Source of the DNA: Escherichia coli
Lineage (GTDB): Bacteria > Pseudomonadota > Gammaproteobacteria > Enterobacterales > Enterobacteriaceae
Assembly: GCF_044324785.1 (NCBI RefSeq)
Contig: NZ_CP172127.1
DNA: 64,000 nt
Reading direction: 5' to 3' (one strand)
In this document: positions 1 to 4,264 of the stretch, piece after piece
How the letters are laid out: each line of letters begins with the position of its first letter
Numbering within the stretch: position 1 is the first letter of the stretch
The notes under the pieces: generated by a model
Seen by the model: the letters and a program-made list of their open reading frames with translations, nothing else
What the model was told of the DNA's origin: nothing
Databases searched by the model: none
Position numbers and translations under genes: made by a program

Positions 1-1530
1 CTGTACCCAACCGTTTTGCGTAAAGACAAAACCGTCGAGATGCTCGCCAAAGTATTCCACCATGTCATTACGCTCGGCCTCGCCATGCACCAGCACATCC
101 AGACCTAAACGTTCCTGCTCAACAATGGCCTGCTTGATATGTTCCGCAATGCCCGTACGGTAGTTGTTGGCGTCGAGATTACCCTTTTTGAAATCCAGAC
201 GCAGGGTACGAATTTCCGTGGTTTGCGGGAAGGAACCAATCGTGGTGGTCGGCCACGCGGGCAGTTTAAAACGCGCACGCTGGGCTTCAGCACGCACTTC
301 ATAGACATTCGCACGCTGACTGTCCTGGGCGGTGATCGCCGCCAGACGCTTTTCTACCGCCGGATTATGGACACGGGTAGAGTGACGACGCGCCTGAATC
401 GGAGCGCTCCACTCTGCCAGAGCTGCCGTATCACCACTGTTCAGCGCATCGCGCAGTAGTGCCAGTTCGTGACATTTTTGTAGAGCGAAGGCAAACCAGC
501 TTTTCACTTCTGCATCAAGACGCGTTTCCACGCTCAGGTCGATGGGGCTGTGCAGCAGTGAGCAGGAAGATGCCACCCACAAATCACGTTTGCCGACAAA
601 GTCCTTAATTTGCGCATATTTCTCGGTAAGATCGGCGCGCCAGACGTTACGACCATTGATAAGACCCGCAGACAGTAGCCAGTCTGAAGGCAGACGCTTG
701 TGCAGTTCAGCAACGTCATCTTTACCATGTACAAGGTCCACATGCAGCCCCTGAACAGGCAGCGCAGTAATCGTGTCGAGATTTGGCGTTACGCCTTCAA
801 AATAGGTAGTCAGCAGCAGTTTCACCTGGCCCTGGAGCGCGTCGTAAGCGGGTTTGTATGCGTCCAGCCACGCCTGCGGCAGTTCCAGAACCAGCGCGGG
901 TTCGTCGATCTGTACCCACTCAATGCCGCGTTTTGCCAGTTCTGCCAGCACTTGCTGATAAACCGGCAGAATGTCGTTCAGCAGGCTAAGGCGATCAAAC
1001 TGTTCACCTTTCACTTTACCCAGCCACAGGTAGGTAATCGGCCCCAGCAGCACAGGTTTCACCTTGTGGCCCAGCGCCAGCGCCTCGTCCACTTCCTCCA
1101 GCAGCTGCGTCCAGGTCAGTTTGAACTGTTGGCCTTTAACGAACTCCGGCACCATGTAGTGATAGTTGGTGTTAAACCATTTGGTCATTTCCGCTGCCGC
1201 CGCAGGTTCGCCAGTCGGTGCACGTCCACGACCAATACGGAACAGGGTGTCGATATCTACCGAACCATCGTTGTTCTGATGACGTGGCGGAACATTACCC
1301 AGCAGCAGACTGGTGGTCAGTACATGATCGTACCAGGCAAAATCGCCCACCGGCAGCAGGTCGATACCCGCTTGCTTTTGTTGATCCCAGTGACGAGCAC
1401 GCAATTCACGCCCTACTGCCAGCAGTTCTTCACGCGTGGAGTTCCCCGCCCAATAACTCTCTTGCGCTTTTTTCAGCTCGCGACGCAGGCCAACGCGAGG
1501 GAAACCGAGGGTGTGATTAAGAATTGTCAT
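1..1530 (-). CDS. metE: Cobalamin-independent methionine synthase, N-terminal ~510 codons; the gene runs off the left edge of the window
   Basis: Reverse complement from 1530 translates to [35 protein letters not shown]..., which I recognise as the MetE N-terminus; start codon is 'cat' at 1528..1530 on the + strand. Absent from the ORF track only because it is truncated by the window edge. Confidence 0.92.
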
Positions 1531-1647
1531 TATATGCCCCTTATGGAATTTTTAGTATTTAGCCGTCCAGATGTTTACACATCCATAATTGGCGGTTACT
1601 GTATATTCCTCAAGCGCAAATTATTCATGCCGAAGTGAAGGACTTTC
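1531..1647. promoter_or_regulatory. metE-metR divergent control region (expected MetR activation site and MetJ boxes)
   Basis: 117-bp spacer between divergent metE and metR starts; contains near-palindromic 8-mers resembling the MetJ box AGACGTCT (e.g. 'ccgtccagatgtttacacatcc'). Exact operator positions not resolved. Confidence 0.5.
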
Positions 1648-2601
1648 ATGATCGAAGTAAAACATCTGAAAACGCTACAAGCGTTGCGGAACTGCGGCTC
1701 GCTCGCAGCCGCTGCGGCGACGTTGCATCAGACGCAATCCGCCCTGTCTCACCAGTTTAGCGATCTGGAACAACGCCTTGGCTTCCGGCTATTTGTGCGT
1801 AAAAGCCAGCCGCTTCGCTTTACACCGCAGGGAGAAATCCTGTTGCAACTGGCAAATCAGGTGCTGCCGCAAATCAGCCAGGCACTGCAAGCCTGCAATG
1901 AACCGCAGCAGACGCGTCTGCGCATCGCCATTGAGTGCCATAGCTGTATTCAGTGGCTGACGCCCGCGTTAGAAAATTTCCATAAGAACTGGCCGCAGGT
2001 CGAGATGGACTTTAAATCGGGCGTGACATTTGACCCGCAGCCCGCCTTGCAACAGGGAGAGCTGGATCTGGTAATGACGTCCGATATTCTGCCGCGCAGT
2101 GGCCTGCATTATTCGCCGATGTTCGACTATGAAGTACGCCTGGTGTTAGCACCTGACCATCCATTGGCGGCAAAAACGCGTATTACACCGGAAGATCTCG
2201 CCAGCGAGACGCTGTTGATTTATCCGGTGCAGCGTAGCCGACTGGATGTCTGGCGGCATTTTCTTCAGCCGGCAGGCGTCAGCCCGTCACTGAAAAGCGT
2301 CGATAACACCTTATTGTTGATTCAGATGGTTGCCGCGCGGATGGGTATTGCCGCCCTGCCGCATTGGGTAGTAGAGAGTTTTGAGCGCCAGGGTCTGGTG
2401 GTGACCAAAACCCTGGGCGAAGGCTTGTGGAGCCGACTGTACGCCGCCGTGCGCGATGGCGAGCAGCGTCAGCCGATTACTGAAGCGTTTATTCGCTCAG
2501 CGCGCAATCACGCCTGCGATCATCTGCCGTTTGTGAAGAGCGCGGAGCGACCCACTTACGATGCACCCACAGTGAGGCCAGGATCACCAGCGCGCCTGTA
2601 A
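1648..2601 (+). CDS. metR: LysR-family transcriptional activator of metE/metH
   Basis: 317-aa [48 protein letters not shown]... with an N-terminal LysR helix-turn-helix; divergent from metE. Confidence 0.93.
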
Positions 2602-3388
2602 TGAACGTTGGCCAGTGCGGCTGTTGGTGCCAGATAGCCAGGTTTACCAGCAGCCCTGCCGGAACGTGCATATTATTCATAATGCCCAGCGTTCCGGCGT
2701 CCACCTGCGTCGCGCCGTAGTTCCACATAAAGTAGCCAATCCCGGAAGCCACCACGCCAAGAAACACCAGAATGCCCCATTGCAGCGTGGTTTGCGGCAT
2801 TTTCTGCGCATTTCCCAGCAAGAACCATGCAATCACCGCCACCAGGAACGCGCCAAGATAGAACCACGCAAAGGCGTTATGCTGCGGCATCGGGCGAGTT
2901 TCCATCAGACGTTTGTAACCCACCATGCCGATGGCAAAAGTGATATTGGAGAGCTGCACCAGCAGCAGGCCAGTCCAGAAGTGGTCGGTGACCTGATCAT
3001 AGCGAATAATCCCGGCACCAATCACCGCCAACAAGGCGCTAAAAGCATAGCCCCAGCGCAGACGGCGCTGACTCATGATGTCATAAATCAACGTGATGTA
3101 GAGCGGCGTCAGTACGGTGAACAGCAACAATTCGGAGACCGTCAGGTAGAGATAGGCGCGAAAACTCAGCATATACATCACGCCGAGCTGCATCGCGCCC
3201 ACCAGCATATACAGGCCGACCGTTTTCAGGCTATTGCCACGGGTACGCAGAAACGGTAAAAAAACGAGTGCCGCCAGGCCAACGCGCACCAGCACCGCAA
3301 AATAGCTATCGACGTGCCCCGCAAGGTACTCGCCATAAAAGCTAAAGGAGAAGGCCCACAGAATCGTGGTGATGATAAGTAGCGCCAC
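2489..3388 (-). CDS. yigM: EamA/DMT-family inner membrane transporter
   Basis: 299-aa polytopic hydrophobic ORF in the conserved position between metR and yigL; its 3' end overlaps the metR 3' end convergently. Confidence 0.85.
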
Positions 3389-3463
3389 AATGGAAAACTC
3401 TTTGATTAACGAGTATCCATTGTAGCGAAGTATCAGGTTGACAACTGACCAAATAAAGAACGA

Positions 3464-4264
3464 TTACGATAAATAGAGCTTACGCAGATAATGCGGCACT
3501 GCGTCCTCGGCGTTAGTACCAATCACTTCCAGCTCCGGATGCAGATCTTTCAGACGCTGGTGCGCACTGCCCATAATGCAGCCTTTCCCCGCCATCGACA
3601 GCATTTCGGCGTCGTTCATGCCATCGCCAAAGGCAATGCAATCTTGCAGGCTGTAGCCCAGTTTCTTCGCCACCGCTTCCAGCGCATGACCTTTCGACAC
3701 GCCGCCCGCCATCACTTCCAGACAGGTTAAGGTAGAGAAACTAACGTTGACGCGATCGCCCCAGCGAGCGTTGATCGCCTGCTCCAGCGGCAGAAGTTGT
3801 TCATGGGAATCGCAGGTGAAGAACACTTTGCTGACGCCTTCCGGCTCCAGTAATCCCGGCTCATACAGCGCATATTTGAACACCGCTTCTTTAAAAAAGC
3901 GCATCTCTTCCGGGCGATGGCGATTCATAAACCATTCGTCGTCGCGATAAACATTAGTAATGATGTCCGGATTGTCGTTGACTACGCCAAACAGATCGCT
4001 GGCAATGTCGCGATCCAGGTTATGAGCAAAAATCAGATTGCCATCCAGATCGTGAACGCGCGCGCCATTGGAGGTAATCATGTAAGACTTAATCTCCAGA
4101 TTATCGCGAATTTGCCCCACATCAACGTGGTGACGACCGGTCGCAAACACAAAGTTGATGCCGCGCGCGGTGAGCAGCTTCAGAGTTTCTTTGGCGTAAG
4201 GGGATAACGTATGGTCGGGAGAAAGTAACGTGCCATCTAAATCAGACGCAACAACCTGGTACAT
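3464..4264 (-). CDS. yigL: HAD-superfamily (Cof-type) sugar-phosphate phosphatase
   Basis: The ORF extends to 4390, but the start is placed at the internal Met (MYQVVASDLDGTLLSPDHTLSPYAKETLKLL...) giving ~266 aa; HAD motif DxDGTL at the N-terminus; 'cat' at 4262..4264. Confidence 0.85.
   Translation of the reverse strand: MYQVVASDLDGTLLSPDHTLSPYAKETLKLLTARGINFVFATGRHHVDVGQIRDNLEIKSYMITSNGARVHDLDGNLIFAHNLDRDIASDLFGVVNDNPDIITNVYRDDEWFMNRHRPEEMRFFKEAVFKYALYEPGLLEPEGVSKVFFTCDSHEQLLPLEQAINARWGDRVNVSFSTLTCLEVMAGGVSKGHALEAVAKKLGYSLQDCIAFGDGMNDAEMLSMAGKGCIMGSAHQRLKDLHPELEVIGTNAEDAVPHYLRKLYLS

Follow-up and report, generated by a model that had tools for sequence, protein, structure and literature searches.

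Two genes on opposite strands of the window (the whole stretch of 64,000 nucleotides of E. coli DNA that was analysed) converge and share their 3′ ends (Table 1). The first of them, metR, carries the Pfam domains HTH_1 (residues 5-63) and LysR_substrate (86-288), and its product matches the NCBIfam MetR equivalog NF011950 over residues 1-317 of 317, with 741 bits vs. a cut-off of 382 bits. Residues 1-92 also match the MetR DNA-binding domain in PDB 5fo5 (E 6e-53), with all displayed aligned residues the same. In the RefSeq annotation of the closest E. coli genome and of K-12, metE lies directly upstream of metR on the opposite strand, and this divergent arrangement is kept at all the other Enterobacterales loci that we examined. 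The second gene, yigM, bears the RefSeq product name “bioP: biotin transporter”. Its product scores 308 bits against TIGR00950 (2A78; cut-off 230.2) over residues 11-273 and contains two stretches of Pfam EamA, ending at residue 275. YigM is an established biotin transporter, and according to the literature, ΔyigM strains do not grow on trace biotin; furthermore, yigM is synthetically lethal with the loss or inhibition of bioA (PMC5120140). Thus, both genes are securely identified. Two long antisense open reading frames also lie on the plus strand, one of 214 aa inside yigM (2615-3259) and one of 312 aa inside metE (700-1638); both are in frames other than that of metR, both are absent from the RefSeq annotation, and they look like the usual chance antisense frames of coding DNA.

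Table 1. Features at the junction of metR and yigM, in positions of the window
Feature	Position	Strand	Length or codons	Description	Source
metR CDS	1648..2601	+	317 aa	LysR-type regulator (methionine regulator), divergent from metE	ORF list, RefSeq
yigM/bioP CDS	2489..3388	-	299 aa, GTG start	DMT/EamA-family biotin transporter	ORF list, RefSeq
Convergent coding overlap	2489..2601	both	113 nt	metR and yigM 3′ ends	
YigM tail	2489..2536	-	codons 285-299 + stop	antisense to the constrained last MetR helix (codons 281-296)	
Doubly constrained zone	2536..2554	both frames		MetR K297-P302 and YigM W279-S284	
MetR tail	2554..2601	+	codons 303-317 + stop	antisense to the end of YigM TM10 (codons 263-278)	
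Rho-dependent termination region, approximate peak	~2760	- (yigM sense)		K-12 4011704	Adams et al. 2021

The sequence-only reading had placed the convergent overlap of the two genes exactly where the list of open reading frames gives it, and it had described antisense overlaps of this length as uncommon; the overlap is indeed long for a bacterial gene pair. It had also left room for an over-called 3′ extent of yigM, and this is excluded: neither 3′ end can be over-called because stop codons fix both. The two coding sequences and their overlap are annotated identically by RefSeq PGAP in the closest E. coli genome, and in the reference genome of K-12 MG1655, bioP (4011076-4011975) and metR (4011863-4012816) share 113 nt in the same way. 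Among 5426 complete E. coli genomes, the 113-nt segment was found in 5423, with an identity of at least 99% in 5419, and the identity of the window to these 5423 genomes is 97-99%. It is next to impossible that we are looking at an annotation or sequencing artefact in which one of the frames extends too far owing to a frameshift or an overlooked stop. The conservation data already refute this, given that at least 5419 genomes of E. coli have the same stop codons, as do 70 of 80 related species; the curated K-12 reference carries the overlap, and the Keio deletion of metR abolishes YigM function too (PMC5120140). Nor is the overlap new to the literature. Côté et al. (2016, mBio, PMC5120140) remarked that yigM “overlaps substantially” with metR and found that deleting metR produces the behavior of a yigM mutant. 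The metR-bioP overlap is therefore real, ancient, ordinary, and already annotated and published; what we add are the passenger tails that it appears to encode, a zone of 18 nt constrained in both frames, the age of the arrangement, and its repeated loss.

The overlap is conserved far beyond what chance would produce. We sampled the 80 closest species, all of them Enterobacteriaceae, with one genome per species (Hafniaceae, Morganellaceae, and Budviciaceae fall outside this sample), and found the overlap at 79 of the 80 loci. In 70 species, it measures 113 nt; six others have 116 nt (MetR of 318 aa), two have 98 nt (MetR of 312 aa), and one has 68 nt (YigM of 284 aa). In the alignment, which combines these 79 species with the window, all 80 sequences have the same spacing of exactly 1741 nt between the yigM start and the metR start. 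At the 80th locus, in Leclercia adecarboxylata NCTC13032 (L068, 4280-5245), metR contains several frameshifts, and a comparison with Enterobacter cloacae shows 9 gaps across 1.9 kb; these are probably indel errors of a long-read assembly and not the mark of a pseudogene. A different kind of disruption was observed in E. coli Z135-6 (L002, NZ_CP159632.1), where around 1.2 kb at 2065-3244 replaces parts of both genes. This isolate loses metR after codon 139 and bioP after codon ~76, and the insert carries a 636-nt gene for a “hypothetical protein”; it is thus a natural isolate without an intact metR or bioP.

The same layout is found outside Enterobacteriaceae. In Yersinia, the overlap measures 113 nt, with a MetR of 317 aa and a YigM of 299 aa, while in Rahnella and Pectobacterium, it measures 95 nt (MetR 311 aa, YigM 299 aa in both), and in Dickeya, 98 nt (MetR 312 aa, YigM 299 aa); the spacing of 1741 nt between the two starts is also preserved in these four genera. 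In a Logan contig resembling Dickeya solani (L083, 556-1455), YigM runs out of frame for ~45 internal residues and then returns, which lowers its identity to 57%; the cause is either a fault in the assembly or two frameshifts that compensate for each other. The overlap therefore extends to Enterobacteriaceae, Yersiniaceae (Yersinia, Rahnella), and Pectobacteriaceae (Pectobacterium, Dickeya), reaching beyond the very close species as a genuine overlap should according to Pallejà et al. The lengths of 299 and 317 aa likewise match those of the orthologues in 70 of the 80 species and in Yersinia, in agreement with the length criterion of the same authors. The nearest YigM homologues outside this group, in Vibrio and Microbulbifer, share 51% identity and have 292-294 aa, and they are not beside metR. 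For this reason, we place the origin of the overlap within Enterobacterales, where it is old; beyond this, the distant homologues are uninformative about the origin.

In several lineages, the two genes no longer overlap. In FGI94-like Serratia, a gap of 45 nt with a hairpin terminator separates them (MetR 316 aa, YigM 286 aa), and in Serratia liquefaciens, the gap is of 32 nt (MetR 316 aa, YigM 287 aa). Mixta calida has a gap of 476 nt, with 508 nt added between the starts and a small unannotated ORF in between (MetR 307 aa, YigM 282 aa), and Pantoea sp. B65 has one of 640 nt, with 705 nt added between the starts and a DUF1456 gene in between (MetR 313 aa, YigM 287 aa). Without the overlap, YigM thus has 282-287 aa and MetR 307-316 aa, and hairpin terminators are found between the separated genes. 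The intervening genes differ: the ORF of Mixta (L089, 3612-3860) encodes 82 aa with no Pfam match, the DUF1456 gene of Pantoea occupies 3551-4027 (L092), and both have hairpin terminators on their flanks, which suggests that they are independent insertions. Among all orthologues, the length of MetR ranges from 307 to 318 aa. The sequence-only reading had said that proteins ending earlier in orthologues would speak against its overlap, and such proteins do exist in part. YigM ends at 282-287 aa in Serratia, Mixta, and Pantoea and at 284-285 aa in one species genome of our sample (L027), in a 66-member Salmonella cluster (P0072), and in another cluster of 42 members (P0075), while MetR ends at 307-313 aa in Mixta, Pantoea, Pectobacterium, Dickeya, and Rahnella.

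How much of the overlap is under selection in both frames was assessed from the per-site diversity in the same alignment of 80 sequences, with ω calculated according to Nei-Gojobori. In this overlap, codon position 1 of metR lies opposite position 1 of yigM, 2 opposite 3, and 3 opposite 2, so that any third-position change that is silent in one gene necessarily affects the other protein. The three-base periodicity of the substitutions changes frame sharply at ~2536: between 2554 and 2601, variation falls on the third positions of yigM, and between 2489 and 2536, it falls on those of metR. For YigM, ω is 0.083 outside the overlap (residues 1-262), 0.17 at residues 263-278, 0.23 at residues 279-284, where pS drops to 0.18, and 4.4 at residues 285-299, with a pS of 0.043 and a pN of 0.172. 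For MetR, the corresponding values are 0.053 outside the overlap (residues 1-280), 0.073 at residues 281-296, 0.49 at residues 297-302, where pS drops to 0.16, and 1.86 at residues 303-317. The four-fold sites of YigM opposite the MetR tail are as variable as the others (π of 0.53 vs. 0.50 elsewhere, p=0.50), and those of MetR opposite the YigM tail are not depressed either (0.38 vs. 0.44, p=0.33).

Only between 2536 and 2554 does the pattern differ. There, in six codons of each gene, all three four-fold sites per frame have a π of at most 0.05 (p=0.005 and 0.004), a degree of conservation reached by only 3-4% of four-fold sites elsewhere. Judging from these substitution patterns, constraint from both proteins is confined to this zone, around 18 of the 113 nt. 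Synonymous-site constraint, which the sequence-only reading had proposed as the test for the conservation of both frames, is thus borne out over ~18 nt and fails over the rest of the overlap; an ω below 1 with reduced synonymous variation throughout, as expected of a fully dual-coding segment, was not observed.

The remainder of each reading frame seems to be carried along by its neighbor. Residues 285-299 of YigM would be an unconstrained passenger and residues 303-317 of MetR mostly a passenger, each written on the constrained end of the partner gene. For instance, PNGDAPTAK, a motif in the tail of MetR, results from reading YigM …SLWVHRRWV… in antisense, and it can still be read as a ghost frame opposite the yigM of Serratia. 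The YigM family models stop at residues 273-275, and in the AF2 model, the last transmembrane helix spans residues 259-279, with a pLDDT below 50 at 282-299. For MetR, homology to the regulatory domain of the Neisseria protein (PDB 4ab5) extends up to residue 296; we relied on this alignment and set aside the AlphaFold model of MetR, which was based on 23 close sequences and had a mean pLDDT of 47. Tails of this size need no special explanation. In the genes of the window, antisense stops in the relevant phase occur at 0.043 per codon, and a stretch of 15 or more open codons has a probability of 0.52 by chance, so tails of 15 codons are to be expected once the two cores abut. The natural truncations of both proteins are in keeping with this.

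It could be argued that both tails are functional and that the entire 113 nt is dual-coding and selected in both frames, as most species have a YigM of 299 aa and a MetR of 317 aa and a MetR tail is retained in Serratia even without the overlap. Within E. coli, moreover, 5419 genomes match the overlap with an identity of 99% or more, compared with a typical value of ~97.5% for the 2 kb around it (1500-3500). We nevertheless find this very improbable. The ω of the tails is 4.4 in YigM and 1.9 in MetR, the four-fold sites of the partner opposite the tails are not less variable, and the YigM tail is modelled with low confidence. Natural truncations and shorter orthologues also exist; for example, Serratia, Mixta, and Pantoea lack the YigM tail, as do the truncated variants of L027 and P0072. 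Furthermore, no additional constraint on a short timescale was detected among six Escherichia lineages, in which 26% of the free sites segregate in the overlap vs. 35% outside of it (p=0.34).

Two details weigh against tails that are pure passengers. The last residue of YigM (E299) and its stop codon are nearly invariant, and the stop positions of both genes are very stable; the conserved F281-I282 of MetR would explain the invariance of the YigM stop, and selection on the length of YigM is the alternative. In addition, V268 of YigM is encoded by GTG in 76 of the 80 species, and as MetR would end at 312 aa with GTT or GTC in this place, mild selection against this truncation is possible.

Serratia is informative on how such an overlap can be resolved. 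The extra DNA between the gene starts amounts to 116 and 106 nt at the two Serratia loci, close to the 113 nt of the overlap, and the independent MetR tails encoded there are RPNAAPPVAKPLAPQP and RPSAGVASVKPLASQP. The FGI94-like tail has 7 of 14 residues in common with the Enterobacteriaceae form (p=1e-4), the tail of S. liquefaciens has 5 of 14 in common with that of Yersinia (p=0.005), and the two diverged Serratia tails, both from a MetR of 316 aa, share 7 of 14 with each other (p=5e-4). Because the size of the insertion is near that of the overlap and the MetR tails resemble those encoded by the overlap elsewhere, the data point to Serratia deriving from an overlapped ancestor, in which the shared segment would have been duplicated. 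At the DNA level, a local alignment of the Serratia metR tail with the antisense of the yigM 3′ end gave no significant sign of a tandem duplication, its score being reached by 36 of 500 shuffles. The retention of the MetR tail in this genus hints at a weak function for the tail itself.

The sequence-only reading also proposed that convergent transcription might couple the expression of the two genes. A scan found no intrinsic terminator or promoter within 2489-2601, and the sole terminator-like site that it detected lies inside metR, at 2202-2214. The 171 nt around the overlap showed no significant RNA structure on either strand (z-scores of -0.67 and +1.34), and Rfam returned no match at E<=1 over 1400-3700. 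As no intrinsic terminator separates the genes, the two transcripts would be expected to run into each other. Adams et al. (2021, Supplementary file 2) reported a Rho-dependent termination region inside yigM, on its sense strand, with a Rho score of 5.07 (p=1.3e-12); their windows are of 800 nt and the position is therefore coarse, and we placed its peak in the window (Table 1) through the collinear K-12 coordinates. Their 3′-end tables contain no entry for metR and no curated 3′ end for metR or yigM.

It is plausible that metR and bioP are coupled in their expression, but whether this would explain the persistence of the overlap is another matter. In ExcludonFinder (NAR 2025, PMC12288877), bioP-metR is one of the 165 convergent excludons listed for E. 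coli on the basis of RNA-seq coverage, and selection could in principle have favored the overlap as an excludon in which convergent transcription or double-stranded RNA makes metR and bioP antagonistic and links methionine and SAM to biotin uptake. The lack of an intrinsic terminator between the genes is consistent with overlapping transcripts, and the layout is kept in at least three families of Enterobacterales. Biotin synthesis consumes SAM, and thus a physiological link between methionine and biotin is conceivable. We consider this explanation unlikely, however. The overlap is gone in Serratia, Mixta, and Pantoea, where terminators have been installed between the genes, and this loss argues against strong selection for coupling; the difficulty of separating overlapped genes would explain the persistence equally well. 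The Rho region on the yigM strand would, in addition, restrict how much antisense transcription enters metR. Conway et al. (2014) found overlapping 3′ ends in 75% of the convergent operons of E. coli, and so overlap between transcripts is the norm for convergent pairs and not something special to metR-bioP. Quite unlikely, too, is a selected link in which the metR promoter, controlled by MetJ and MetR, tunes bioP or the reverse, tying SAM to biotin, with a function of its own for the MetR tail.

The account that we consider probable is simpler. Two real and unrelated genes, metR and bioP/yigM, converge without intergenic DNA, with the selected portions of both proteins meeting almost end to end at the zone of double constraint. 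Beyond this zone, each frame would continue through the constrained 3′ end of its partner to the first chance stop, resulting in a tail of ~15 residues per protein whose sequence is dictated by the partner gene. The arrangement would have been inherited from the ancestor of Enterobacteriaceae, Yersiniaceae, and Pectobacteriaceae and then fixed, probably since any indel there would damage both genes. The overlap would have been lost on at least two occasions. A spacer with a hairpin terminator, into which the old YigM tail decayed, may have been restored in Serratia by an insertion of 106-116 nt, and in Mixta and Pantoea, larger insertions would have led to the same outcome. Where there is no intrinsic terminator, both transcripts should collide, and termination is probably Rho-dependent; any regulatory cross-talk would then be a by-product of the layout and not the reason for its persistence.

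The locus can be compared with several known systems. With respect to metR-bioP of E. coli K-12 as already described, the feature itself is no different, as the locus is the same and the overlap of 113 nt is identical. Pallejà et al. (2008, PMC2478687) concluded that long real overlaps are possible in the convergent orientation only, and of 178 convergent overlaps of more than 60 bp, they retained only 54 as possible real cases. The metR-yigM pair resembles these cases in being a tail-to-tail overlap of more than 60 bp between two well-characterised genes, with 3′ ends that are immune to start-codon errors, as in genuine long convergent overlaps; however, those 54 cases are mostly kept in very close species only, while metR-yigM spans at least three families. 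In the supplementary lists of that study, metR, yigM, b3827, and b3828 were not found. We regard metR-yigM as one of the longer genuine convergent overlaps. Long conserved overlaps of this orientation reportedly form through 3′ extension or stop-codon loss (Rogozin et al. 2002). The pair also shares with excludons the convergent genes without a terminator and the reported overlap of their transcripts, but in metR-bioP, the coding regions overlap and not the UTRs alone. Finally, as in antisense overprinted genes such as htgA/mbiA-yaaW and those of EHEC, the tails lie antisense to a gene under constraint, which dictates their sequence, but no new gene has been created, only C-terminal extensions of ~15 residues in two old genes.

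The overlap has a practical consequence in that neither metR nor bioP can be deleted cleanly and single knockouts damage both genes. By the standard Keio design, the metR deletion removes yigM codons from ~270 onward, and the yigM deletion should likewise remove MetR from around residue 288, inside its last helix. Since both Keio deletions hit the partner gene, the phenotypes of either knockout are confounded; for the metR deletion, biotin uptake is indeed abolished (PMC5120140). As for its wider meaning, the metR-bioP overlap opens no new biological question, and its functional content would come to ~18 nt. It is a clean textbook case of a long convergent overlap that is mostly “empty”, with natural lineages that show how it can be resolved.
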